Source of the DNA: Dehalococcoidia bacterium | GTDB taxonomy: Bacteria; Chloroflexota; Dehalococcoidia; UBA6926 | Assembly (NCBI GenBank): GCA_965207895.1 | Contig: CBDBNN010000002.1 | Location: forward strand, 92,498-156,497 | DNA: 64,000 bases | Direction: 5' to 3' | Shown: piece by piece, positions 5,421 to 63,134 of the stretch | Position numbering within the stretch: the first letter of the stretch is position 1 | Layout of the letters: every line of letters starts with the position of its first letter | Notes under the pieces: generated by a model | Database searches by the model: none | What the model was told of the DNA's origin: nothing | What the model saw: only the letters and a program-made list of their open reading frames with translations | Position numbers and translations under genes: made by a program

Positions 5421-6557
5421 ATGCAGGACATCCCTCGCCCATTGGAAATACTGGAGACGCTCTGCAAGCAGCCCGCCACGTCATACTTCGAGGACAACGT
5501 CTCTCGCGAAGTCGAGCGTATGCTCGCGGACGCCGCAATCCCCTGGGAGCAGGACGAGTACGGCAACATCATCGCCCGGCTGACACGACGCGACGATTCG
5601 GAACCCATGCCGCGCCCCGTCGCCCTTGTCGCCCACATGGACCACCCGGGCTTCGAGGTGCTCGAGGTCAACGGCCAACGGCTGACCTTGCAGATGCTCG
5701 GCCGTGTCTCAGATGTCATCTACGAACAACAGGTGGATCTTGTCGTCCACTGTAACGACGGCTCATCATGTGCCGCCCGGACAACGGGCCAGGACGGCGA
5801 TATGGAGACGCGGATCCTCTACGCCGACTTGGCGGAACAGAACGAGCTGCCTTTGCCTGCTTTTGCGGTCTTTGACCTGGTAGATTGTGAATTTCGTAAC
5901 AATACCGTTTTTGCGCGTGCCCTCGACGATCTCGCCGGTTGCGCCGCCACGTTGAGCGTTATGGAAACTCTCGTCGCGGAAAATGAACCGGTCGACGTAA
6001 TCGGCGTATTCACACGTGCAGAGGAGAACGGCCTCATTGGAGCGCGCCTGCTCGCCGCCAATGCCTCTCTCCCAAAGGAAACGCTCGTCGTGTCCATAGA
6101 ATCGTCCAGAACGCTCCCCGGCGCAGAACAGGGCAAAGGCCCCGTCATCCGCGTCGGCGACGCGCTTTCCACTTTTTCACAATCCGCAGAAGAAATCCTC
6201 CAAACTGCGCGAGTGGCTCTTCAACGCAGAGAGCCACCGATTCCGGTTCAACGGCAACTCATGTCTGGCGGTGTCTGCGAAGCATCAGCTTTTATCGCGC
6301 ACGGCTATGAGTCCACGGGCGTCGCGTTCCCACTGGCCCATTATCACAACGGATTCGGCGAAGATTCCATTCAAGCCGAAAACATCGCCATCAGCGATTT
6401 TCTTGGAGGCGTAGCACTCCTGCTGGAAGCTACGCGTTCCATGCGCACCTCACAGCAGCAGGCATCCGGCGGTGCTCAATCGCTCTATGAGCGACTCCGC
6501 GCCGCGCCGGAAGAAGAAGGAAACAGGCTTCGTTCGATCGCCAAAAGAGCCGGATGA
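5421..6557 (+). CDS. M42/M28-like metallopeptidase (MH clan)
   Basis: Metal-ligand motifs VAHMDH, RALDD, FTRAEE, SIE, and a C-terminal HYH. Confidence 0.8.
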   Translation: MQDIPRPLEILETLCKQPATSYFEDNVSREVERMLADAAIPWEQDEYGNIIARLTRRDDSEPMPRPVALVAHMDHPGFEVLEVNGQRLTLQMLGRVSDVIYEQQVDLVVHCNDGSSCAARTTGQDGDMETRILYADLAEQNELPLPAFAVFDLVDCEFRNNTVFARALDDLAGCAATLSVMETLVAENEPVDVIGVFTRAEENGLIGARLLAANASLPKETLVVSIESSRTLPGAEQGKGPVIRVGDALSTFSQSAEEILQTARVALQRREPPIPVQRQLMSGGVCEASAFIAHGYESTGVAFPLAHYHNGFGEDSIQAENIAISDFLGGVALLLEATRSMRTSQQQASGGAQSLYERLRAAPEEEGNRLRSIAKRAG

Positions 6558-6641
6558 TAAGCAGCCTACGGGTGCGACCTTGTCGCAATCATACGTAGCA
6601 CATTACGCTTTCATACACTACGCTAGTGGCGGGAACCAAGC

Positions 6642-7682
6642 ATGCTAAGGCAAGTCTGGCTTTACGGGCGAATCCTCATTGGCGTAGCCCTTGGAGTAGG
6701 GGTTGCCTACATTATTGTCCGTGAAGTTCATTTCGACGAGTTACTGGAACAACTCTCCGCGTTCAATTGGTACCTGATGATTCCCGTTATGGGCGTCGTC
6801 GTTGCGAGCAATGCCATTCGGGCGGTCAGGTGGAGAATGCTCTTCCATGGCCGGGCGCCAACCGCCACGCTGTTGTTTTTTGTAGAGAACACCGGCCAGG
6901 GTCTAAACAATCTCGCCCCCATTCGCGTCGTCGCAGAACCCATTCAATTCGGGTACATCGCGCTGAGGGAGGGATATGAAAGGGGGTCCGTACTCGCATC
7001 GATAGTGTTGGGTCGCGTGTCGGACCTCGCAATCACACTCGGAAGCCTTGCAGTCGGTTTCGCGATATTCGCGCCGGGAGGCGCAGGATACCTTAGCGTA
7101 ATCATTTTTGTGCTGATCGGAATCCTTGTCGCTGTCGCGGTACTGTCGTTATATACGCACAAGATCACGTGGTTTGACCGATTCCCGATTGTGCGTACGT
7201 ATTCGGCAGCGTGGCAGGAGCTCATTGCTCAGCCGCGGAAACTGGCCTCAGTGATGGGTGTAACACTCGCAACGTGGATGACACTCGGACTGGCAGCCTA
7301 TCTGGTGGGACTGTCAAACGAGCTCGAGCCGAACAATTCACAGAACCCTATTGAAGTCTACGTCATCATCTATGTCGTGGTGCTGGGCACGATGACGTTG
7401 GGGTCAATCTTGCCGGGCTTACCCTCCGGCATCGGCCCGTTTGAGGCAGCCGCAGTTGCTTTCCTGGGATTCTACGGTGTAGACAAAGAAGTCGCGCTGG
7501 CTTTTGGCCTCATCATCCACGCTGCCTTCTTCATCCCGCCGATTATCATCGCCATTGGCACCCTGATCATGTTTGGTCCTCCATGGTCGACGCGGCATCG
7601 CGTGCGGCGTCTCCGCCGCGAGCGGCGCGAAGCTCGAACAGCTTCCGCAACCAGAAAGGTAGCGCAAGAAGGAGACCTATAA
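6642..7682 (+). CDS. Lysylphosphatidylglycerol synthase TM-region / flippase-like membrane protein (UPF0104)
   Basis: Multi-TM; RAVRWRMLF, NNLAPIRVVAE, LPGLPSGIGPFEA motifs typical of the family. Confidence 0.8.
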   Translation: MLRQVWLYGRILIGVALGVGVAYIIVREVHFDELLEQLSAFNWYLMIPVMGVVVASNAIRAVRWRMLFHGRAPTATLLFFVENTGQGLNNLAPIRVVAEPIQFGYIALREGYERGSVLASIVLGRVSDLAITLGSLAVGFAIFAPGGAGYLSVIIFVLIGILVAVAVLSLYTHKITWFDRFPIVRTYSAAWQELIAQPRKLASVMGVTLATWMTLGLAAYLVGLSNELEPNNSQNPIEVYVIIYVVVLGTMTLGSILPGLPSGIGPFEAAAVAFLGFYGVDKEVALAFGLIIHAAFFIPPIIIAIGTLIMFGPPWSTRHRVRRLRRERREARTASATRKVAQEGDL

Positions 7683-30933: not shown

Positions 30934-31020
30934 GGCAGGATGGCGGAGTGGACAAACGCACCAGGCTGTAAACTTGGCGCCCTAAGGGCTACGGGGGTTC
31001 GAATCCCTCTCCTGCCACCA
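30934..31020 (+). tRNA. tRNA-Tyr(GTA)
   Basis: GGCAGGATGGCGGAGTGGACAAACGCACCAGGCTGTAAACTTGGCGCCCTAAGGGCTACGGGGGTTCGAATCCCTCTCCTGCCACCA; long variable arm, encoded CCA. Confidence 0.95.
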
Positions 31021-31055: not shown

Positions 31056-33098
31056 GTGATGTTGTTTGAACTTTCAAACGACCTGCTGACGCGGCAACCC
31101 ACGTCTGTTGTGGGAGTCGTATTCGTACATGACACGGCCGCGCCTTCCCCTGAGAACGTCGGCGCACTCCAACGCGCCCTACACGAAGCAGCACAGGCTG
31201 TGCCGTGGAAGCTTGGCGGAACCGGGCTGCACGGCCATCAGGCAATTGCCCGGTGGGAGCAGGCTTTCGAGGCGGAGGGCATCAACCCCCGGACTCATAT
31301 GCCGTCGGTCGCGGCCCTCGCCCAGCGATGCTTGCGCGGCGACTATGTTCGCTCAATCAACCCCGCAGCTGACATTGCCAACCTCATCTCCATGAGACAC
31401 CTCGTGCCGGTCGGCGCGCATGACGTAGATCGACTACCCGGAGACATCACCGTGCGGCTGAGCCGCGAGGGAGACACGTTCACCGGTCACCCCGGTGATG
31501 AAACGGAAAAACTGCCGACCGGTGAGCCGGTGTATGCGACAGGCAGCGATATTCGAACCCGTCGCTGGGTCTGGCGGCAGGCCGAAACGGCTATGACAAC
31601 ACCGGAGAGCCGGACAATCGTCTTTCCTGTGGACGGGTTCACGGACGCGACTGCTGAGCGCGTAGAGGCGGCGACGCAGGAATTGGCACTTTTGGCCAAA
31701 GCGGTGCTTGGCGGAGATGTTTGCTACGGCTATGTGAGCGCCGACAAGCCTTCACTTTCTGAGGATGATGTCTCGCTGACCCAAGTGGATGACAGCGAGG
31801 CAGCCACTGCCCCGCTGTTGTCTCTCGACACAACTGACGAGAGGGCTGGAACCTACCCGTCCCCACCGGACGATGAGGCGCTCGCCAAATGGTCGTTGTC
31901 AGACCTGCTCCGTCGGGGGATTTTGGACGGCGTGATCGTCGAGGAGGAGCTGCAAGAGGCGCTGGACTCCGGGCGGCGACTAACCATCTACGAGGGGTTT
32001 GATCCGACAAGCACAAGTCTCCATATCGGCCACTATCTTTCCTTGAGGGTCTTGCGATGGTTCCAGTTGAACGGGCATCGCGTCATCATGTTGTTCGGCG
32101 ACTTCACCGCTCGTATCGGTGATCCAACAGGCCAGTCAGCGGAACGCCAACAGCTCACACAAGATGAGGTGCTCGCCAACGCCCAGGAGTGGCGGGCACA
32201 GGTTTCGCGCGTGCTTGATCTGGGTGGAGACAATCCCGTCGAAATCAAATGGAATGGCGAGTGGCTGGATAGCCTCACGCTTCGGGACATGATTGAGATT
32301 GCCGCGAACGTGACGGTGCAGCAGCTTATTGAACGGGACATGTTCCAGGAACGCCTCTCGCAGCAAAGGCCCCTCCATTTACATGAGACGCTCTATCCGC
32401 TGCTGCAGGGCTATGACTCTGTGGCGATGAGCGTGGACGCGGAGCTTGGCGGCCGTGACCAGATGTTCAATATGATGGTCGGGCGAGACCTTGTGCGGAA
32501 TTACAACGGCAAGACGAAGCACGTGCTGATGACGCCGCTCATCCCGGGCCTGGATGGGCGCAAGATGAGCAAGTCATATGGGAACACCGTCGATCTCACT
32601 GAGAATCCCGTCGATATGTTCTTCAAACTGACGCAAGTGAGTGATGAGCTGTTGCCAATGTTCATGAGCGTTCTCACGGACACGCCGGACGAGGAAATCG
32701 ACGAAGTTCGGCACCGCCTGTCCTCTGAGTCCAACCTGCAGGATGCTCGTGAGCGATTCGCGTGGGCGGTGACAGAGCGCCTGCACGGCGCCGATGAGGC
32801 GCAACGGGCTCAGGCAGAGTTCACACGTGTGGTCGATGAAGGAAGCATGCGGCAGGACGTGGAGGAGGTTTTCCTGAAGCCTGCGACAGAGCCCCTGACG
32901 ATTCTTGACGTTGCGGTGGCAACGGGCCTGACGACGAGCCGCGGCGACGCGCGCCGCCTGATCCAGCAGGGCGGTCTTGAGATCAACGACCATCGCCATA
33001 CTGAGCCCACGCTGCAGCTCTCGCCGGAAGACGTGGAGGGAGCAATCATCAAGATGGGCAAACGCGGATTCGTGCGGATGAAGGTGAAACGCGCATGA
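31056..33098 (+). CDS. tyrS: Tyrosine--tRNA ligase with an N-terminal B3/4 (PheT-like editing) domain
   Basis: C-terminal part: YEGFDPTSTSLHIGH, YPLLQGYDS, ELGGRDQMFN, KMSKS, S4 domain SRGDARRLIQQGG. N-terminal ~230 aa: PSVAAL..R...INPAADIANLISMRHLVPVGAHDVD and RRWVWRQAE..T, typical of B3/4 proteins. Confidence 0.92.
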   Translation: MMLFELSNDLLTRQPTSVVGVVFVHDTAAPSPENVGALQRALHEAAQAVPWKLGGTGLHGHQAIARWEQAFEAEGINPRTHMPSVAALAQRCLRGDYVRSINPAADIANLISMRHLVPVGAHDVDRLPGDITVRLSREGDTFTGHPGDETEKLPTGEPVYATGSDIRTRRWVWRQAETAMTTPESRTIVFPVDGFTDATAERVEAATQELALLAKAVLGGDVCYGYVSADKPSLSEDDVSLTQVDDSEAATAPLLSLDTTDERAGTYPSPPDDEALAKWSLSDLLRRGILDGVIVEEELQEALDSGRRLTIYEGFDPTSTSLHIGHYLSLRVLRWFQLNGHRVIMLFGDFTARIGDPTGQSAERQQLTQDEVLANAQEWRAQVSRVLDLGGDNPVEIKWNGEWLDSLTLRDMIEIAANVTVQQLIERDMFQERLSQQRPLHLHETLYPLLQGYDSVAMSVDAELGGRDQMFNMMVGRDLVRNYNGKTKHVLMTPLIPGLDGRKMSKSYGNTVDLTENPVDMFFKLTQVSDELLPMFMSVLTDTPDEEIDEVRHRLSSESNLQDARERFAWAVTERLHGADEAQRAQAEFTRVVDEGSMRQDVEEVFLKPATEPLTILDVAVATGLTTSRGDARRLIQQGGLEINDHRHTEPTLQLSPEDVEGAIIKMGKRGFVRMKVKRA

Positions 33099-50076: not shown

Positions 50077-51117
50077 TCAGGGGTGGACATGTAGTTCTTG
50101 TTGTTCGGTGATATGTCCAATCACGGCACCGCTGGTGCTGCGGGATTCGAGGGCCTTTAGCAGCGCATCGCGCTTGTCAGCGGACACGGCGATGAGCAGA
50201 CCCCCCGATGTCTGCGCGTCCATCAGCATGATTCTGGCCGCCTCACTCACGTCCGGATGCCAAGTGACGTTTTTCTCAATCCACATGCGATTGCGGCCTG
50301 TTCCGCCGGGAACAAAGCCTCGATCGATCATTTCCCATGCGGCGGGAATCGTCGGTATGTCTGACACGGATAGAGTCGCGCCGACCTTGCTGCCATCAAG
50401 CATTCCCTTGAGGTGTCCCAGTAGGCCGAATCCCGTTATGTCCGTGCAGGCATTCACGCCCACCTCAATCATCGCCTCCGACGCATCGCGGTTCAGTTGA
50501 GCCATAACGGCAACAACCTCGGCGAGCGTGTCAGCGTCAAGCGCGCCGTTCTTGTGTGCAGTCGTGAGCACGCCGGAGCCAAGTGGTTTTGTCAGTATGA
50601 GAGCGTCACCGGGCTGTGCACCCACATTCGCCACTTGGTGGCCGGGCTGCACGATGCCGGTGACAGAGAGACCGTACTTTGGCTCAGGATCCTCAATGGT
50701 GTGGCCGCCAGCGATGAGCGTGCCAGCCTCAGCCGCCTTATCTCCACCGCCCTTCAGAATCCGGCCAAGGATTTCCTTATCAAGCGCGTCCGGAAACGCA
50801 GCAACGTTGAGGGCGATGACGGGATGGCCGCCCATGGCATACACATCACTGAGTGCGTTGGCCGCGGCAATCGCCCCGTAGTCATACGGGTCATCAACGA
50901 CGGGCGGAAAGAAATCGATGGTCTGGATAAGCGCAATGTCATCCGTCAGACGATAGACAGCAGCATCGTCACCGGTCGAAATTCCGACCAGCAAATTGGG
51001 GTCGGTGACGGGTGGCAGATTGCGCAGGACCTGCGCAAGCTCGGCGGGGCCGAGTTTAGCCGCTCAACCGGCGCAGTGGGACAGGCTTGTGAGCCTCACC
51101 TGTTCCGAAGTCGACAT
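50077..51117 (-). CDS. selD: Selenide, water dikinase with in-frame Sec (TGA 51066-51064)
   Basis: MSTSEQVRLTSLSHCAG-U-AAKLGPAELAQVL continues in frame into the tracked ORF 50077..50994 (GDDAAV, TIDFFPPVVDDP, NALSDVYAMG, GGHT, TDITGFGLLGH, DAQTSGGLL). 346 aa in total; SD GGAGG. Confidence 0.95.
51020..51038 (-). promoter_or_regulatory. Candidate SECIS hairpin of selD
   Basis: TTGCGCAG-GTC-CTGCGCAA, with the loop 33 nt after UGA; resembles the E. coli fdhF apical GCAGGUCUGC hairpin. Confidence 0.7.
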
Positions 51118-56957: not shown

Positions 56958-57121
56958 TTGCGGACATGCGTTCGTCTTGGTGGCGGCATCGTACCTCAGT
57001 AGGATAGGGATGACAAGGGGAGCGGATTGACAGCGGCGCGGATTGACGCGCACTATACGCATAAGCGGATATGTCGAGCAATGCCGCGTACTGTGGGTGT
57101 AGCGTGATCGAGGAGTAGAAA

Positions 57122-58288
57122 ATGAGTATTCGAGGCAAAGCTGCCATCGTAGGCTTTAGTGAACTCCCGCATCGTCGTTCCTATGCCGGCCGCCACTTCA
57201 TGGGGATGTACGCGGAGGCAACGGCCATGGCGATTGCAGACGCGGGCATTCGCAAAGAGGACATCAACGGCATCATCGCCGAGCCACCGTTTGGCCTGCC
57301 GAGTCTCGGATTCGCGTACGACTTTGCCGAGTACATTGGCCTGCAACCCCATTTCGCAACAGCGCTGAACGAAAACGCCGCCACCTTCATTTCCGTGGCC
57401 GCCGCAGCCATCAACGCGGGCTACGCGGACACGGTGCTTTGCATCAACGGAGCGGGACCTGTTTCAAACGTTCCAGGGATGTATGCTCCCGCGCCGGATC
57501 ACGTGGATCCACAGTTCGTTGAGCCCTACGGCCCGGTTGTCGCGGCCAACGGATGGTATGCGCAGATTGCGCGGCGGCACACATGGGAATACGGCACAAC
57601 CGATTTCCAGCGAGCACGAGTAGCGGCAGATCAGCGATTTAACGCCCAGGGCAATGAGAACGCGTTCTTCAACGGCCAGCCCGCCAACGAGGAAGATATC
57701 TTGAACTCGCGGCTCGTCGCAGACCCGCTCCACCTGTTGGAGTGCGTGATGCCGGCGCAGGGCGCAGCGGCAACCATTGTCACGACACCGGAGCGAGCCC
57801 GGACCCTTCGCAACCCGCCTGTTTATCTTCTGGGCGCGGGACACCACAATCTCCGCGCCGAGCACGGCGTTGATTGGGTTGACCGCATCACCACGTCTCC
57901 TGCCGTCGTATCCGCCAAGAAGGCATTCCAGATGGCAGGGCTAGGGCCAGACGACATGGACATGGCCCAGATCTACGACTGCTACACCATCACAGTCATG
58001 ATCACGCTGGAGGACTCCGGATTCTTCCCCAAAGGCGAATCCGGCCCGTTCTACGCGCAGCATGATACGAAGTGGAGCGGTGATTTTCCCGTCAATACCG
58101 GCGGCGGACAGCTTTCAAATGGGCAGTCAACAGCCGGAACAACACAGGTTGTCGAGGCGGTGCGACAGCTGATGGGGCGCGCTGAGAATCACCAGGTCCC
58201 GAACCACGACCTTTGCTTCGTGAACACTTGACGGGGATATATAAGCGACATGTCGTCGCTTGTGCTTGCGACGGAAATCCCGTCGTAG
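57122..58288 (+). CDS. Thiolase-family (SCP2/non-canonical) protein with in-frame TGA at 58229-58231; candidate selenoprotein
   Basis: AAIVGFSE, ADAGIRKEDING, DPLHLLEC, QIYDCYTITV...LED.GF, VNTGGGQLS, VEAVRQL. The ORF track stops at VNT*, but read-through adds U-RGYISDMSSLVLATEIPS*, completing the final beta-hairpin (388 aa). The thiolase call is firm; the Sec call is inferred. Confidence 0.8.
58229..58285 (+). promoter_or_regulatory. Candidate SECIS stem-loop of the thiolase gene
   Basis: Upper stem ATAAGCGAC (58241-58249)/GTCGCTTGT (58255-58263) with loop ATGTC 18 nt after UGA; lower stem TGACGGG(G)AT with ATCCCGTCG (58277-58285). Confidence 0.6.
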
Positions 58289-58306: not shown

Positions 58307-58350
58307 AGTGCCCCGCCGACCGTTTGGTCGGCGGGGCACTTTCATTTTTT
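58307..58350 (+). terminator. Intrinsic terminator after the thiolase gene
   Basis: Perfect 15-bp stem AGTGCCCCGCCGACC-GTTT-GGTCGGCGGGGCACT plus T-tract; lies just after the read-through TAG at 58288. Confidence 0.88.
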
Positions 58351-58492
58351 GGCCTGAATGTGACGTTTTTGAAGCGCATTCCAACCTGAATGTAGCAATG
58401 TTGTAGTCGGATGCGCATACGCGTCAGGGCGACTGTAGTTGTGGGTTCGGCAGCGGCCGGGCCTGAGGCAACAGACGCAGGAGGCGCTCGTC

Positions 58493-60304
58493 ATGCGTAC
58501 ACAAGACAGCAGGCTCACCACAAAGCCCGGGGGCACAACTCCCGGTGGATTCTTCGGGGGAGTTGGATGGACAACAGCCCTGGCACTCATCGCCATCGTC
58601 GCCATGATTGCGATGGCGGCCGGCTGTGCAGCCTCGGAAGAAGACTACGACCGCAGCTATCGATCCACACCCGCAATGGCGGAACCCACCGCCACGGCTG
58701 TCACCATCACCGCATCTTCTCCAACCACAGCCCCACGGTATGAAGAGGCGATGGATGATAGCGCTGCGGGCTCGTCGTACTCATCGAGTCGATCGCGGCG
58801 GGCTACGCCGGTTCCGGCACGACCAACTCCATCCTATGAGAGAACAACGATCGTTCCCGGCGGCCCAATAACATTCGATGACTACGTGCAGTCGGGATGG
58901 GTCTGGGCAGACCAGGACAACATGTCCACGTTCAGCCTGGACACGGACCGCACGTCGTTCGCGCTCGCACTGAACTGGGCGCAGTCGGGGTACGAGATCG
59001 ACCCGGATTCCGTGCGCGCGGAGGAGTGGATCAACGCGTTCAATTATGATTATCCGCAGCCGTCTCACGACGACTCCTTCGGCATCACAACAGACGTGTT
59101 CGAACATCCGCTGGACAGCGCGTTCCAGATGGTGCGTCTTGGATTCCAGGCACCCCGGGTTGAGGACAACATTCCGGTCAACGTGACGCTCGTGCTGGAT
59201 GCGTCCGGCTCCATGGCAGACGGAAATCGTGTTGAAATCGCCCGAGAGGCAGCAGAGGCGATTCGCAACAGCCTGGGCAGCAGGGACCGCATGGCCGTCG
59301 TCCATTTCTCATCGGATGTCATCGACAACCTGACTGTCGAGCACTCGAATCCGGATGACCGTGACGTGCGTCGCTCCATCGACCGACTGACGCCGAGTGC
59401 CAGCACGAACGTGCAGGCCGGGCTGAACGAGGGCGTATGGCTTGCAGACCGGGCTCGGCGCGACAGGCCGAACGCATACAACTACATCATCCTGATGTCG
59501 GACGGCGTGGCCAACGTAGATGCGACAGACCCGTTCGCCATCCTTGAGAGCACCTATGACCGGAACGCCCTAAATCCGCTCCGGCTGATCACCATAGGCG
59601 TGGGCATCAGCAACTACAACGACGTGCTCCTTGAGCAGCTGGCACAGCATGGCAACGGATGGTATCGCTACCTGAACGACACCGAGCACGCACGGCAGAC
59701 CTTCGAGCGCGACAACTGGCTGGCCATCTCGAAGCCCTTCGCCGATCAGACGCGGGCACAGGTGAGGTGGAACCCGGACGTTGTGGACTCGTGGCGCATG
59801 GTCGGCTACGAGAACCGTGTCACCTCCGATGCGTCGTTCACCGAGAACCGCAAGGAATTCGCGGAGATCCCGGCCGGCACGGCGACAACAGTGTTCTTCG
59901 AGGTGCGGCTAAGGGATGAGATGCGCTCCCGGCTGAACAGCGTGGCTGACCTCGGCACCGTGGATCTGCGCTGGGTTGATCCTGTCACGGGCCAGTCCCT
60001 TCAGCAGTCTGAATGGATGGACGTGCGGCTGGACCGGCGACTTGGCAGAGGCGACGACGCATACGTGGAGTTCGGCGCGATTGTGGCGCTGTCCGCAGAT
60101 CGCTATGCCAGCCTACCCAACACGGACTCGTATGGAGCGGAAATCGTGCAGCATGAGTTGGCTGTGCTGTCGGATCGACTCGAGTCCCTTGACGGAGAGC
60201 TTGGACGGCTGGAATCCTTCAAGGATTTCCGTTATGTGCTGGGCCACATGATGCACGACCTGCCTCAAGCCCCGGCAAGGCCGTCATCCGGGTACAGCAA
60301 CTAG
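58493..60304 (+). CDS. YfbK-like vWA-domain lipoprotein
   Basis: SD GGAGG before ATG 58493, hydrophobic signal ending AMAAGC (lipobox), FSLDTDRTS, VRAEEWINAF, MIDAS DASGS/STN/SDG, GYENR. Confidence 0.85.
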   Translation: MRTQDSRLTTKPGGTTPGGFFGGVGWTTALALIAIVAMIAMAAGCAASEEDYDRSYRSTPAMAEPTATAVTITASSPTTAPRYEEAMDDSAAGSSYSSSRSRRATPVPARPTPSYERTTIVPGGPITFDDYVQSGWVWADQDNMSTFSLDTDRTSFALALNWAQSGYEIDPDSVRAEEWINAFNYDYPQPSHDDSFGITTDVFEHPLDSAFQMVRLGFQAPRVEDNIPVNVTLVLDASGSMADGNRVEIAREAAEAIRNSLGSRDRMAVVHFSSDVIDNLTVEHSNPDDRDVRRSIDRLTPSASTNVQAGLNEGVWLADRARRDRPNAYNYIILMSDGVANVDATDPFAILESTYDRNALNPLRLITIGVGISNYNDVLLEQLAQHGNGWYRYLNDTEHARQTFERDNWLAISKPFADQTRAQVRWNPDVVDSWRMVGYENRVTSDASFTENRKEFAEIPAGTATTVFFEVRLRDEMRSRLNSVADLGTVDLRWVDPVTGQSLQQSEWMDVRLDRRLGRGDDAYVEFGAIVALSADRYASLPNTDSYGAEIVQHELAVLSDRLESLDGELGRLESFKDFRYVLGHMMHDLPQAPARPSSGYSN

Positions 60305-60339
60305 TTAGCTATTCACCCCACACCACGGGGGAGGGAGAG

Positions 60340-60370
60340 GCCCGCCCTGCCGTACGGCAGGGCGGGTTTT
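60340..60370 (+). terminator. Terminator after vWA gene 1
   Basis: GCCCGCCCTGCCG-TA-CGGCAGGGCGGGT followed by TTTT. Confidence 0.8.
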
Positions 60371-60584
60371 CTTGACCTCACGCTCAACGTGGCTACCTGA
60401 AGGCGACAGTTCTCCGCGTTTCGGAATCGACTGCTCAATTGAGGTTTTAGATTCTCTTGCCCTCAGGCTCAACGTGATTGCCCAAAGTCGATGGTCTTTT
60501 GGAAGCGAAGGGAACGATTTGGGTCATTGAGCGCGTAGTATCTGACGGACTGGAGAATCGGGCAGAGGCCCAAGGGAACAGCCC

Positions 60585-61112
60585 ATGCAGGACAACCAAG
60601 CGGTGGAGAGATGCCAGGGCGGCGATCGGGACGCCTTTCGCCACCTTGTAGATCGCTATCACGGCGTACTTTTCGGCACAGCCATCCTGATGACGGGCAA
60701 TCGCGCCGTCGCCGAAGAAGCTGTGCAGGAGGCATTTCTCTCTGCGTGGAAAGGCATCCGTAAATTCAGAATTGGCCGCCCGTTCAAGCCGTGGGTGACG
60801 CGAATCCTCGTCAATGAGGTATTGAGCGGCAAGAGACGGCGGTCGATACGGACAGATCCGATACCGGAGCCTGATGAAACTGGCGCGCCGTCCGCTTCAC
60901 ACAATCCTGACGCACTTGCGGATCGGGTTGCCGTCAGGGATGCGATTGCCGAGTTGGATTCAGATCATCAGCAGGTGATTGTTCTGCGCTACTTCACGGA
61001 CCTGACCGTGCCGGAGATCGCCAACTCAATAGGAATACCGGAGGGAACGGTCAAATCGCGGCTCAGTCGGGCCATTGCCCGCCTGAGAGAACACCTGGAC
61101 GAGGCCGGGTGA
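60585..61112 (+). CDS. ECF RNA polymerase sigma factor
   Basis: AFRHLVDRYH, AEEAVQEAFL, FKPWVTRI, region 4 EIANSIGIPEGTVKSRLSRA. Confidence 0.93.
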   Translation: MQDNQAVERCQGGDRDAFRHLVDRYHGVLFGTAILMTGNRAVAEEAVQEAFLSAWKGIRKFRIGRPFKPWVTRILVNEVLSGKRRRSIRTDPIPEPDETGAPSASHNPDALADRVAVRDAIAELDSDHQQVIVLRYFTDLTVPEIANSIGIPEGTVKSRLSRAIARLREHLDEAG

Positions 61113-61121
61113 GGGAGGCCC

Positions 61122-63134
61122 ATGATGGATAGAAGGGATCTATCCGACGAGAACATCGAGGACATCCTGCGTGAGCATTTGCAGGCAGAGCTTGAATCAA
61201 TGCCGCCCGCGGCAAACCCGTGGGAGTGGATTCAGAGTCGGCTGCCACGGCAGCGAAGCAGATTCCTCGGATTCCTTGACCTGTCCGTCGGCTCCGCGCT
61301 CCGCCCGGCGCTGGCCGCGACTGCTCTCCTTGCGCTTGTGATCGGGGTGACTACGTGGCAGGTGTCGGGTTTTAGGGAAACTACTCTCTTGGTGACACCG
61401 CAGGACTTATCGTCAGATGGTCAAACCCGATTTGAGTCGCTAGAGTCGGCTGATTTTGAGTCCGTCCCCCTGATGGACTCCGACAGGGCGTTCCCAACGG
61501 CCTTGGCAATCGTGACCTCAGCAGCAACTACCACTCCTCAATCATTGTCAAACATGCCTCAACCAACGCCGCAGCCATGGGCAACACCGGCTCCTCAAGC
61601 AACAGGCTGGCCCGGGTCACAGAGCAGAGCGCTTCCGACTGCCACGCCTCGACCGGCTACACTGCCCAGCCACAGTGGTTCGACAGACACACCCCCAGAC
61701 GCACGCTTCCGGGATCTTGTGCAGTCCGGCTGGGTCTACGCGCATGAGGATAACCTTTCCACGTTCAGCCTGGATACAGACCGTACCTCATTCTCACTTG
61801 CGCTGAACTGGGCACAGAACGGGTACAAGATTGAGCCAAACTCGGTGCGCGCAGAAGAATGGATCAACGCGTTCAACTACGAGTATCCGCAGCCCGCGCA
61901 TGACGACACGTTTGGAATTACAACGGACGTTTTTGCGCATCCACTGTACAGCGATTTCCACATGGTACGGTTGGGCTTCCAGGCGCCCTATGTCATGGAT
62001 GAGAAGCCGCTCAATGTCACCCTGGTTCTTGACGCATCCGGCTCCATGGCCGACGGCAATCGCGTGGACATTGCACGGGCGGCGGCAGAAGCCATCAGGG
62101 AGAGCCTGAGCAGGGATGACCGCATCGCAGTGGTGCACTTCACGGATAACGTGATATCCGACTACACCGTTCGCCACTCGCGAGCCGATGCCAGAGATGT
62201 CAGAGAGTCCATAAGAAAGCTGGCTCCGCACAGCAGCACCAATGTACAAGCGGGGCTCAATGAAGGAGTGCGTCTTGCGGATCGGGCCCGGCGTCAAAGG
62301 CCGGATGCGCACAACTACATCATCCTGATGTCAGACGGTGTCGCCAACGTGGATGCGACTGACCCCTTCGCAATCCTCGAAAGTGCCTACGATCGCGATG
62401 AGGGTAACCCGCTCAGGCTCATCACCATCGGCGTGGGAATCAGCAACTACAATGATGTACTCCTCGAGCAGTTGGCCCAGTACGGCAACGGCTGGTATCG
62501 GTACCTGAACGACGTTGACCATGCGCGTGCGACGTTTGATCGCGACAACTGGCTGGCCATTTCTACGCCGTTCGCCGACCAGACACGTGCGCAGGTGGAG
62601 TGGAACTCAGATGTGGTCGAATCATGGCGCATGATCGGGTACGAGAACCGACTCACCTCTGACCAATCGTTCACGGAGAATCGAAAGGAATTTGCAGAGA
62701 TACCGTCCGGCGCGGCAACAACCGTCTTCTTTGAAGTTCGACTAACGGGCGGGACGCTATCACGTCGTTTTGAGTCAGCCAACTTGGGCACTGTCGCGTT
62801 GCGCTGGGTCGATCCTGGCAGTGGCATTTCGAATCGACAGGCGACGGAACTGAATTCACGACTGGATCATACACTGGGCCGCAGTGGTGACGCCCTGCTG
62901 GAGTTTGGAGCAGTCGTCGCGCTCGCGGCAGATAGGTACGCAAGCCTGCCATACACCGATGACCTTGACGGCACAGCAGCGCGCGGCGAACTTGAATCCC
63001 TGCAGTCACGAACGGAAAGGCTCGCCTCACGATTGGGCAATCTCAATGCATACCATGACTTTTTGCTTGTGCTAGATCGGATGCTAGATGCGATGCCACA
63101 AACATCGGAAAGGTCATCGGGCTACAGCAATTAG
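61122..63134 (+). CDS. Putative anti-sigma factor fused to a YfbK-like vWA domain
   Basis: Short cytoplasmic N-terminus (..PWEWIQSRL), one TM (ALAATALLALVIGVTTW), P/T-rich linker, then a vWA module collinear with 58493..60304; 9 nt after the ECF stop. Confidence 0.82.
   Translation: MMDRRDLSDENIEDILREHLQAELESMPPAANPWEWIQSRLPRQRSRFLGFLDLSVGSALRPALAATALLALVIGVTTWQVSGFRETTLLVTPQDLSSDGQTRFESLESADFESVPLMDSDRAFPTALAIVTSAATTTPQSLSNMPQPTPQPWATPAPQATGWPGSQSRALPTATPRPATLPSHSGSTDTPPDARFRDLVQSGWVYAHEDNLSTFSLDTDRTSFSLALNWAQNGYKIEPNSVRAEEWINAFNYEYPQPAHDDTFGITTDVFAHPLYSDFHMVRLGFQAPYVMDEKPLNVTLVLDASGSMADGNRVDIARAAAEAIRESLSRDDRIAVVHFTDNVISDYTVRHSRADARDVRESIRKLAPHSSTNVQAGLNEGVRLADRARRQRPDAHNYIILMSDGVANVDATDPFAILESAYDRDEGNPLRLITIGVGISNYNDVLLEQLAQYGNGWYRYLNDVDHARATFDRDNWLAISTPFADQTRAQVEWNSDVVESWRMIGYENRLTSDQSFTENRKEFAEIPSGAATTVFFEVRLTGGTLSRRFESANLGTVALRWVDPGSGISNRQATELNSRLDHTLGRSGDALLEFGAVVALAADRYASLPYTDDLDGTAARGELESLQSRTERLASRLGNLNAYHDFLLVLDRMLDAMPQTSERSSGYSN

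Follow-up and report, generated by a model that had tools for sequence, protein, structure and literature searches.

An in-frame TGA in a thiolase-fold gene

Does the TGA at positions 58229-58231 of this DNA end a gene, or is it a selenocysteine (Sec) codon within it? In the window, by which we mean the whole stretch of 64,000 nucleotides (64 kb) that was analysed, a forward-strand gene starts with an ATG at 57122, 6 nt downstream of a Shine-Dalgarno-like GAGGAG read directly from the sequence (57110-57115). According to the sequence and the ORF list, the TGA closes its annotated 369-codon ORF (57122-58231), which is the call made by every annotation pipeline. Codons 1-369 (57122-58228), ending in ...HDLCFVNT, encode a thiolase-fold protein, as supported by the ORF list, Pfam and the PDB. 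Reading through the TGA adds an 18-residue tail, RGYISDMSSLVLATEIPS, before a TAG at 58286-58288 (tail and stop, 58232-58288), giving a product of 388 residues. Residues 255-383 of this product match the Pfam domain Thiolase_C_1 (PF22691) from profile position 14 to 143 of 144 (E 2e-42). Since the match runs to profile position 143 of 144, the tail is the missing end of the domain. An earlier note on this sequence had claimed that the ORF ends at HDLCFVNT-TGA with a tail that completes the fold, and that an intrinsic terminator lies past the TAG. Both claims held: the terminator (58307-58350) has a 15-bp G+C-rich stem (58307-58340) with a T-run next to it, TTCATTTTTT. Truncation at the TGA would leave the protein without its oxyanion-hole Gly and last beta-strand.

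If the UGA is read as Sec, a Sec-bearing peptide AENHQVPNHDLCFVNTUR is expected, and the C-terminal peptide GYISDMSSLVLATEIPS would exist only after read-through. The neighbours of the gene in the window are MmcB-like, vWA and ECF sigma genes. Neither a DUF35 partner nor a hydratase gene lies next to it, and tblastn against the window returned no paralogue of the protein.

The TGA and the tail that follows it are conserved among relatives

We compared the gene with 79 related loci from species-representative genomes, which makes 80 genes with that of the window. A TGA was found exactly at column 370 in 39 of the 79 loci (36 species-level assemblies), that is 40/80 counting the window, and the other 40 loci encode Asn (36) or Ser (4) at this column. 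The gene in OZ242203.1 is 96% identical to that of the window, and the genome hits number roughly 600 in all. The earlier note had asked whether orthologues carry TGA or Cys here; the answer is TGA, Asn or Ser, with the downstream frame conserved. Neither TAA nor TAG occurs at column 370 in any of the 80 homologues, and the restriction to TGA holds in 40/40 TGA-type genes spanning 46-96% identity. A sequencing or assembly error behind the TGA could be rejected, as 4 runs gave contigs without any difference between 58100 and 58360 and relatives share the TGA, among them four close ones (L001-L004).

The in-frame tail, 16-21 residues long, is conserved in all TGA-type genes (GGxxSxMxxLxLG; for example GGTASEMCSLVLGSEDTL among the relatives). 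These tails are homologous to the C-terminal tails of full-length Asn-type proteins and to the terminal strand of solved structures. The genuine stop of the TGA-type genes is TAG or TAA in 40/40 cases, while 25/40 of the non-TGA-type genes use TGA. The two types also differ elsewhere, in statistics of co-variation that are not corrected for phylogeny. Cys is present at position 365, five residues before Sec (58214-58216 in the window gene), in 26/40 TGA-type genes against 1/40 of the others, and further columns near the active site (208, 311, 316, 333 and 340-341) are remodelled in the TGA type. In 20/40 TGA-type loci and 31/40 of the others, the next gene downstream is a DUF35 gene.

No Cys was found at column 370 in the 79 related loci, and a targeted search recovered just two rare forms, P0128 (TGT) and P0254. 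Both lack the Cys of the YDCY loop described below, P0128 reading FCDFYT and P0254 YDATT. Because these rare column-370-Cys homologues are without the YDCY Cys, the two sites look functionally interchangeable, which we infer as likely from sequence alone. P0254 was also considered as a bona fide thiolase bridging the families and was rejected, given that its N-terminal Cys lies at nucleophile+3 and not at the nucleophile position. In the wider superfamily, column 370 accommodates many different residues. The non-Sec homologues have Asn, Ser or Thr there and hardly ever Cys, a pattern not typical of selenoproteins; given this lack of Cys, the position is not universally catalytic.

A SECIS-like hairpin follows the UGA

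Downstream of the UGA, we found a SECIS-like hairpin (58240-58264) whose 10-bp stem, G-U pairs included, is formed by 58240-58249 and 58255-58264 and closed by an apical loop AUGUC (58250-58254). The stem starts 8 nt and the loop 18 nt past the UGA. The 9-bp hairpin that the earlier note placed 18 nt after the UGA is therefore real, with 10 bp and with its loop, not its stem, at that distance. A lower stem pairing across the UGA, also put forward there, was not confirmed as meaningful: it is a small local helix present in one fold only, for which no conservation was found. Counting from the U of UGA, the loop shows G24-U25, and its AUG is the codon of Met377.

Across TGA-type genes, the hairpin is located 11-15 nt after the UGA and is more stable than at the same place in Asn/Ser-type genes (MFE -12.2 versus -7.7 kcal/mol, p 4e-7). 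Paired cells amounted to 85.5% and 81.5%, compared to 13-56% for slid registers. Compensatory double changes were observed at 5 and 4 pairs, with a covariation score equalled in 0/500 shuffles (likewise uncorrected for phylogeny). The hairpin is specific to the TGA type, and A22-U23-G24 of its AUG(U) loop is invariant. Since this invariant AUG encodes residue 377, Met377 is nearly fixed in TGA-type genes (39/40), while Gln occupies the position in 37/40 of the others. The geometry and the GU loop fit bacterial SECIS elements.

A second hairpin with a 9-bp stem and an AAAUC loop spans the TAG (58266-58288), and we assign no role to it. In many relatives a GGUC-loop hairpin lies at a similar distance, and two differing hairpins follow the UGA, of which the SelB-bound one could not be distinguished. 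Rfam at gathering thresholds detected no SECIS family in the window, but three tRNAs only.

A second TGA occurs at the YDCY cysteine in half of the TGA-type genes

The relatives revealed a feature that could not be visible to the earlier note. In 21/40 TGA-type genes, the Cys codon of the YDCY loop is itself replaced by an in-frame TGA, the rest having TGC or TGT, whereas none of the 40 Asn/Ser-type genes has this second TGA (Fisher p 3e-8, uncorrected for phylogeny). The second TGA is accompanied by its own hairpin (p 2e-4). TGA and Cys codons at the YDCY site very likely represent a canonical Sec/Cys pair, as far as can be inferred from sequence alone. Within one family, the residues at columns 370/287 are found in the states U/C, U/U, N/C, S/S and C/F, and the locus L035 has the N/A form.

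The organism very likely decodes UGA as Sec

About 7 kb from the gene, on the minus strand, the window encodes the selenophosphate synthetase SelD (50077-51117; AIRS and AIRS_C domains), which has an in-frame TGA of its own at 51066-51064 (SHCAG-U-AAKLGPAEL) immediately followed by a hairpin with a GU loop. This bears out the claim that a Sec-containing SelD is encoded in the same window, and we infer from this in-frame TGA that the organism very likely decodes UGA as Sec. Scanning the window for other TGA-joined open frames, we found only the 57122 gene and selD as plausible cases. We detected no selA, selB or tRNA-Sec gene (selC) in the 64-kb window with ARAGORN and with Pfam on the ten largest other ORFs, which were housekeeping only; ARAGORN found no tRNA-Sec in 36 related loci either. 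Dehalococcoidia are described as having very large selenoproteomes (PMC13326102). A reassigned genetic code was ruled out, because TGA terminates 18 of the 51 long frames of the window as an ordinary stop.

Sec probably lies beside the catalytic cysteine of an aldolase-like active site

By sequence, the protein belongs to the SCP2-thiolase-like/DUF35-associated branch with a Pfam Thiolase_C_1 domain. PDB matches were 9myr (E 1.6e-78, full length), 4u4e, 6ok1, 7yvy and 6esq, and all NCBIfam matches were far below curated cut-offs. The closest characterised relatives are not thiolases but the steroid side-chain retro-aldolases Sal and Ltp2. CtSal is the bile-acid C5 side-chain retro-aldolase of Comamonas testosteroni (PDB 9MYR; PMC12329534), and mapping through 9MYR aligned the Sec370 column with its Thr389 and Gly372 with its oxyanion-hole Gly391.

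The catalytic set of Sal is kept. Tyr285 and Cys287 (CtSal Tyr302 and Cys304) lie in the catalytic loop Y285-D-C287-Y (57974-57985), Cys287 being encoded by the TGC at 57980-57982; Gln330 and Gln335 correspond to Gln347 and Gln352, both hydrogen-bonded to the Cys, and Gly372 completes the set. Tyr285, Gln330 and Gln335 are invariant in our alignment and Gly372 is conserved. The nucleophile Cys of thiolases is absent, since its loop is NENAAT here, GASGA in relatives, and has Gly where the Cys would be, as CtSal does. The GHP His is missing as well, the region reading NTGGGQLS. Both observations had been made in the earlier note and held. Because there is neither a CxS nucleophile Cys nor a GHP His, a canonical thiolase cycle is not possible for this protein. 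The absence of the nucleophile Cys together with the retained Sal-aldolase set makes a Sec-bearing acyl-CoA aldolase-like enzyme the best reading, which is likely, the chemistry being inferred and the substrate unassigned.

Where would Sec lie? Classical thiolases have their acid/base Cys at Gly-2 of the CxG loop, with the Gly at Cys+2 forming the oxyanion hole. The match proposed between U-R-G and the classical C378-x-G380 motif held, as the Gly two residues on corresponds to CtSal Gly391. By two-step homology, Sec370 (58229-58231; placed by homologue alignment and structure mapping) is thus likely in the Cbeta4-Cbeta5 CxG loop, at the position of that acid/base Cys. The proposal that Sec occupies the catalytic site held only in part: in the SCP2-like branch the catalytic Cys is not at the CxG position but at Cys287, and Sec sits beside it. 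This adjacency is probable, resting on homology and co-variation with no measured distance.

The likeness to CtSal extends to the fold and to the pairing of relatives of the 57122 gene with a DUF35 protein, as for Sal. The differences are Sec370 instead of Thr389, the second oxyanion-hole Gln161 replaced by Ala142 (the adjoining Asn143 is conserved), no adjacent DUF35 or hydratase gene in the window, and the divergence of the TGA-type subfamily at several active-site-proximal columns. TcLtp2 (PDB 6OK1) and TbSLP (PDB 5AB4-7), SCP2-thiolase-like proteins that are aldolases or aldolase candidates, share the Thiolase_C_1 architecture and, as in the window, hold catalytic residues in an xDxF/Y loop. 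However, they lack Sec and are less identical to the 57122 protein, and Ltp2 has YDHF and a second Tyr. Classical and SCP2-type thiolases (CxS, NEAF/HDCF, GHP, CxGGGxG) have the same fold, Sec falls at their CxG acid/base Cys, and the HDCF Cys of SCP2-thiolase corresponds to the YDCY Cys; in contrast, their CxS nucleophile Cys and GHP His are absent here (NTGGGQ).

Proposed explanation and its rivals

Taking these observations together, we propose that the UGA at 58229-58231 would be decoded as Sec370 by SelB and tRNA-Sec, recruited by the hairpin at 58240-58264 presenting G24-U25. The ribosome would then read 18 codons to the TAG, adding the last beta-strand of the thiolase fold. In the enzyme, Sec370 and Cys287 would form a two-chalcogen catalytic dyad (Sec and Sec in half of the relatives) that makes or breaks a C-C bond of an acyl-CoA substrate through a retro-aldol or thiolase-like reaction. 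The selenol/selenolate may act as proton shuttle or nucleophile, and a reversible Se-S bond could close with Cys287 or Cys365. That the gene genuinely decodes Sec is very likely on comparative evidence, in the absence of data on selenium incorporation or full-length protein. The proposal as a whole, that of a 388-residue selenoprotein, is likely. Whether the dyad is catalytic and not purely protective or regulatory can only be inferred, and we would not favour one side over the other. The earlier suggestion of a new selenoprotein family using an in-frame SECIS-like hairpin is supported by the 39 loci, the tail, the covarying TGA-specific hairpin and SelD.

It remains possible that Sec is real and non-catalytic, and that its reversible selenenylsulfide with either Cys287 or Cys365 shields or redox-gates the catalytic Cys of an otherwise ordinary Sal-like aldolase, which would be useful to aerobic or sponge-associated Dehalococcoidia. 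In favour of this view, Asn-, Thr- and Ser-type homologues, including active CtSal (Thr389), function without a chalcogen at a column that varies across the superfamily, and the TGA-type-specific Cys at -5 resembles a resolving cysteine. Against it, the replacement of the catalytic Cys itself by Sec in 21/40 TGA-type genes points to selection on catalysis and not on protection alone, and the active site of this type is remodelled at the columns given above. More doubtful is a regained thiolase chemistry on beta-ketoacyl-CoA, with Sec370 as the acyl-accepting nucleophile in place of Cys89 and Cys287 or Sec287 as acid/base. Sec performs very well both as nucleophile and as leaving group; two active-site chalcogens are found as in thiolases, aldolase-type relatives having one, and the missing nucleophile Cys would require another nucleophile. 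However, within the thiolase pocket CxG belongs to the acid/base side and not to that of the nucleophile, the invariant Sal-type Tyr285 fits aldolase chemistry, and no biochemical data support this unlikely scheme.

The alternatives without Sec fare worse. Reading of the UGA as a standard residue (e.g. Trp or Cys, brought in through a near-cognate tRNA), or through an altered code of the lineage, could account for Asn instead of Cys in the homologues, for the database protein P0125, which is translated with Trp at both TGAs, and for selA, selB and selC not being seen in the window. Yet the Trp of P0125 stems from the code that a gene caller chose and has no biological meaning, TGA serves as an ordinary stop in the window, the same genes place TGA at a catalytic Cys codon (a Sec/Cys pair), the SelD of the window uses the same device, and the hairpin matches bacterial SECIS elements in geometry and GU loop, so that we regard this reading as very unlikely. 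Finally, the UGA could be a true stop of a pseudogene or a short 369-residue form, the tail being an RNA element that, for instance, couples translation of DUF35. The unanimous call of the annotation pipelines and the DUF35 gene directly downstream in 20/40 TGA-type loci speak for it. It is all but excluded by the exclusive use of TGA in 40/40 genes over 46-96% identity, by a tail that is conserved as protein sequence and has its homologue in the terminal strand of full-length relatives and solved structures, by the loss of the oxyanion-hole Gly and last beta-strand that truncation would entail, and by the window gene, which has the tail and the hairpin yet no DUF35 gene downstream.

Relation to known selenoproteins and significance

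FdhA, SelD and similar proteins share with our Sec-decoding gene a UGA immediately followed by a hairpin with a GU apical loop, and selenenylsulfides of the thioredoxin-reductase type share a nearby Cys or Sec partner. Unlike known Sec proteins, the host here is a C-C bond lyase/transferase fold and not an oxidoreductase, non-Sec homologues have Asn, Ser or Thr in place of the primary Sec where Cys would be usual, and an active site can hold as many as two Sec. We found no thiolase, aldolase or DUF35 selenoprotein in the 2022 and 2026 reviews, deep-Sep, the GOS survey or the BSepDB main text, nor a thiolase-like selenoprotein in NCBIfam, and no Sec in a classical thiolase is known in the literature searched.

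If true, this would be a large new bacterial selenoprotein family, with Sec seen for the first time in this superfamily and used outside oxidoreductases, half of the members having two Sec. It would bring selenium to a fold and a reaction class, C-C cleavage on CoA thioesters, where it has not yet been seen. With a little more confidence than doubt, we extend this to a widespread, unrecognised selenoenzyme family, centred on Dehalococcoidia and SAR202 and reaching into other MAG lineages, with one or two active-site Sec in a DUF35-associated thiolase fold that cleaves C-C bonds of acyl-CoA. The family may bear on the degradation of recalcitrant alicyclic or sterol-like matter by Dehalococcoidia/SAR202, including sponge symbionts, and on their selenium demand.

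Current discovery methods assume Sec/Cys homologue pairs (PMC12013277, PMC13188914). The alternation of Sec with Asn would explain why the family escaped pipelines based on such pairs, curated databases and gene callers, and selenoprotein discovery would prove to have a blind spot here. The genes come out of gene callers truncated or split, as pieces of about 280, 80 and 369 residues, and a systematic mis-annotation would be corrected for hundreds of database entries that end in ...VNG or are fragments of about 80 residues. With CtSal as a solved scaffold, the family would also offer a natural experiment on what Sec does when it neighbours or replaces a catalytic acid/base cysteine.

The frame of a thiolase-fold gene continues through an in-frame TGA

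From its ATG at 57122 (+), preceded by GAGGAG at 57110-57115, the thiolase-fold gene runs for 369 codons to ...HDLCFVNT, where it meets a TGA (58229-58231, +), past which the frame continues as RGYISDMSSLVLATEIPS up to a TAG (58286-58288, +). By querying Pfam with the 388-residue product carrying a placeholder at the UGA, we found that residues 255-383 match Thiolase_C_1 (PF22691) at profile positions 14-143 of 144 (E 2e-42). Since the match reaches position 143, it is the tail that completes the domain. A stem of 15 bp (58307-58340) followed by a T-run forms a strong intrinsic terminator 3' of the TAG and not of the TGA, and the segment 58100-58360 is identical, with zero differences, in Logan contigs of four runs.

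A protein search yielded 3545 homologues, and some 100 of the top 120, at identities between 95% and ~46%, end at the same column (...VNG or ...VNT), and full-length homologues read VNG-N-GGIMSEQCSLVLG across it. We then read the DNA of 79 loci from species-representative genomes and found TGA at this column in 39 of them (40 with the window), Asn codons (AAC or AAT) in 36 and Ser codons in 4; TAA or TAG occurred in none of the 79 loci nor in the window, and no Cys codon was present among the 79 loci. In all 40 TGA-type genes the TGA is followed by a conserved in-frame tail resembling GGTASEMCSLVLGSEDTL, which ends at a real stop and has 18 residues in 35 of them (full range 16-21 codons). This real stop is always TAG or TAA and never TGA (40/40 and 0/40), whereas it is TGA in 25 of the 40 Asn/Ser-type genes (Fisher p 2e-10). 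The 39 TGA loci come from 36 assemblies, mostly Dehalococcoidia, SAR202 or other Chloroflexota, of sponge, marine, groundwater and lake origin. Two near-identical genes with TGA at both sites described below sit in bins of different phyla, L012 being labelled Actinomycetota and L071 Entotheonellaceae, which might be explained by faulty binning or by recent transfer.

A pseudogene or a sequencing error is ruled out by the TGA-only column and the conserved tail pattern across loci. A reassigned UGA was rejected as well, given that TGA is an ordinary stop elsewhere in the window: it ends 18 of the 51 open frames with 250 codons or more, selD itself among them, and therefore the genetic code is not reassigned.

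Selenium decoding is indicated by the window's selD (50077-51117, -; AIRS and AIRS_C domains), which has its own in-frame TGA at 51066-51064 (...SLSHCAG-U-AAKLGPAEL...) with a hairpin UUGCGCAG-GUC-CUGCGCAA at +29 to +47. Judging from its sequence, this SelD is very likely itself a selenoprotein. Annotation pipelines call only its downstream part of 305-313 residues. Neither tRNA-Sec nor selA or selB was found within the 64-kb window. The earlier note had proposed a Sec-decoding thiolase-fold protein, and this overall finding stands, on stronger grounds than its author knew, selenium incorporation being inferred without direct proof; its description of the ORF, read-through, hairpin and terminator also held, bar small details.

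A hairpin 3' of the UGA covaries and constrains the protein

With RNAfold, a 10-bp hairpin with the loop AUGUC is predicted at 58240-58264 (hairpin 1), followed by a second one at 58266-58288 that overlaps the true TAG stop (9-bp stem, UGCGACGG.AAAUC.CCGUCGUA) and whose function is not known. TGA-type genes carry a 7-10-bp hairpin starting 11-15 nt past the U of UGA, with the apical loop at +20 to +26, and the mean fold energy of the segment +7 to +42 is -12.2 kcal/mol in these genes versus -7.7 in Asn/Ser-type ones (Mann-Whitney p 4e-7). As to finer claims of the earlier note, a hairpin start 18 nt after the UGA holds only in part, the loop and not the stem starting there, and a lower stem pairing across the UGA failed as a convincing feature.

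Because TGA-type genes use two hairpin registers, each was tested on its own gap-free alignment. Standard pairs filled 85.5% of cells in the window's register and 81.5% in the other, the values being 13-56% and 18-53%, respectively, when the 3' partner was slid by 1-3 columns. Compensatory double changes were found in 5 of 10 and 4 of 9 pairs, and in either register 0 of 500 shuffles attained the covariation score. Between the window's clade (AAGCGAC/GUCGCUU) and the L012 clade (GAGCGUG/CACGCUC), for example, C-G is swapped for G-C, A-U for U-A and A-U for G-C. Loop bases A22-U23-G24 are invariant in TGA-type genes, as is U25 in the window's group, and the AUG is codon 377, which is Met in 39/40 TGA-type genes versus Gln in 37/40 others. 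Thus, the RNA element sets an amino acid, as an in-frame bacterial SECIS should. In E. coli fdhF, the loop bases contacting SelB are G23 and U24 by the same counting, a geometry almost equal to that of hairpin 1. Many relatives have an additional hairpin near +41 with the loop GGUC; in those with two, SelB could bind either one. Of the two hairpins in the window's gene, hairpin 1 alone carries GU in its loop.

Sec370 probably lies beside the working cysteine of a Sal-like active site

The best solved homologue of the window's protein is 9MYR (E 1.6e-78), that is CtSal, a bile-acid side-chain retro-aldolase from Comamonas testosteroni (PMC12329534). CtSal has Gly in place of the nucleophilic Cys; catalysis relies on Tyr302 and Cys304 of Y302-D-C304-Y, with C304A, C304S and C304H all inactive, the Cys is hydrogen-bonded by Gln347 and Gln352, and the oxyanion hole is formed by the Gly391 backbone NH and Gln161 (PMC12329534). 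After correcting for the 24-residue tag in the 9MYR chain (offset verified as Y302 and C304 = chain residues 326 and 328), Y285, C287, Q330 and Q335 of the window's protein correspond to Tyr302, Cys304, Gln347 and Gln352, U370 to Thr389 and G372 to Gly391, whereas Gln161 is replaced by Ala142. The Sal catalytic set is thus kept, in a protein with a thiolase fold that belongs to the SCP2-like branch of Thiolase_C_1. A canonical thiolase is ruled out, as neither the CxS Cys nor the GHP His is present and every NCBIfam match stays far under its cut-off.

The CxG (CxGGGxG) loop of canonical thiolases provides the acid/base Cys, and the Gly at Cys +2 contributes its backbone N to oxyanion hole 2 (Cys413 and Gly415 in human T2; PMC6790690). 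Combined with the CtSal mapping, this geometry identifies U-R-G in the window's protein as the old C-x-G, an equivalence that the earlier note had proposed and that held. SCP2-type thiolases have lost the CxG Cys and use the HDCF-loop Cys in its place (PMC7682436), the latter being reportedly spatially equivalent to the former (Harijan et al. 2013). By homology, the working cysteine of this branch is likely the YDCY one, with Sec370 inferred to sit beside it. Two rare proteins with Cys at the Sec370 column, P0128 (codon TGT; FCDFYT ... VNG-C-GG) and P0254 (YDATT ... VHT-C-GG), are without the YDCY cysteine, a pattern consistent with two equivalent sites; both positions are filled only in Sec-type enzymes. 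Among 50% cluster representatives of the wider superfamily the Sec370 column varies between N, T, S, Q, V, A and H, so that Sec is a lineage-specific recruitment and not the swap of a universally conserved residue.

A second in-frame TGA is present in half of the TGA-type genes

When whole genes were translated, the Cys codon of the YD-C-Y loop proved to be a further in-frame TGA in 21 of the 40 TGA-type genes (L007-L009, L012-L016, L020, L023-L026, L029, L030, L041-L043, L046, L052 and L071) versus none of the 40 Asn/Ser-type genes (Fisher p 3e-8, without phylogenetic correction). The window has TGC here (Cys287, 57980-57982, +), and the alternation of TGA with TGC or TGT at this site is the classical Sec/Cys one. 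The second site has its own downstream hairpin, with a loop CGUG(A/U) at +21 to +25 and an MFE of -11.9 versus -9.0 kcal/mol (p 2e-4). Written as residue at the Sec370 column/residue at the Cys287 column (U for Sec), the joint states are U/C 19, U/U 21, N/C 34, N/A 1 and S/S 4. In addition, a Cys at Sec -5 (C-x-V-N-G-U; Cys365 in the window, 58214-58216, +) is present in 26/40 TGA-type genes versus 1/40 others and could serve as a resolving cysteine.

In a quick NJ tree, U/C and U/U genes are intermingled within large TGA-type clades, and three Asn-type genes (L033, L035, L075) are nested inside these. Nested in a U/U clade, L035 (OZ244736.1, match 6001-7146) has both Sec codons changed to non-Cys codons, AAC (Asn) and GCA (Ala), and retains a tail of the Sec type, with the equivalent of Met377, along with a residual hairpin. 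Its lineage may have lost Sec decoding, and its enzyme is perhaps inactive.

Gene callers split U/U genes, and many database 'hypothetical proteins' of 78-81 residues (among P0126-P0240) are the stretch between their first and second TGA. The database protein P0125 is translated with Trp at both sites, apparently since a gene caller changed the genetic code for that contig. Another one, P0007, is near-identical to the window's clade over its N-terminal ~200 residues and resembles the Binatia Asn-type clade in its C-terminal half; it might be a chimera made in assembly, or paralogues might have recombined.

Proposed chemistry and genomic context

TGA-type and Asn-type proteins differ systematically at columns 208 (C or S vs I), 311, 316, 333 (G, A or N vs F) and 340-341 (FR vs MS), all active-site-proximal, which likely points to a separate subfamily with a remodelled pocket. 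We propose that the full-length selenoprotein would be an acyl-CoA C-C lyase, retro-aldolase or thiolase-like; this is inferred, without assay data on substrate or activity. Sec370 and Cys287 (Sec/Sec in relatives) would form a two-chalcogen dyad, in which the low-pKa selenol may act as proton shuttle or nucleophile and could pair with Cys287 or Cys365 through a reversible Se-S bond. We hold such a catalytic role, whose chemistry is inferred, to be slightly less likely than not. That Sec370 is mainly protective or redox-gating is a rival we favour less, while a 're-invented thiolase' with Sec370 as acyl acceptor is improbable.

The SCP2-like branch of Thiolase_C_1 is usually partnered with a DUF35 Zn-ribbon protein (CxxC...FFYPRExCPxC), the gene for which lies directly downstream in half of the relatives of the TGA type and in most of those of the Asn type. 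No adjacent DUF35 gene exists in the window's own clade. The window's gene is flanked by an MmcB-like gene upstream and by vWA, ECF sigma and vWA genes downstream. Its closest relative (L081 / L082, 14602-20058) has two tandem pairs of DUF35 (zf-ChsH2) and a 429-residue Thiolase_C_1 protein 3-9 kb downstream of the orthologue where the window has this array, so local gene order varies between close relatives.

No thiolase-, aldolase-, SCP2- or DUF35-type selenoprotein was mentioned in the open-access literature searched (the 2022 and 2026 prokaryotic selenoproteome reviews, the deep-Sep paper, the GOS survey and the main text, not the family table, of BSepDB) or in NCBIfam release 20. As the two reviews and the deep-Sep paper emphasise, discovery depends on Sec/Cys pairs, a requirement that would exclude a family with Asn in its non-Sec members. 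The mechanism of Sec insertion is ordinary; what is new is the family that hosts Sec, its alternation with Asn, the active sites with two Sec and the wide distribution.

The two vWA proteins (58439-63134, +) are paralogous and YfbK-like, with 621 and 670 residues. Between them is the ECF sigma factor gene (60585-61112), which ends with a TGA at 61110, just 5' of the second vWA ORF start (61122). Elsewhere in the window, directly 3' of a tRNA-Tyr (30934-31020), a 680-residue ORF (31056-33098, +) joins an N-terminal B3/4 domain to a class I TyrRS catalytic domain and a SYY C-terminal domain, an unusual fusion.
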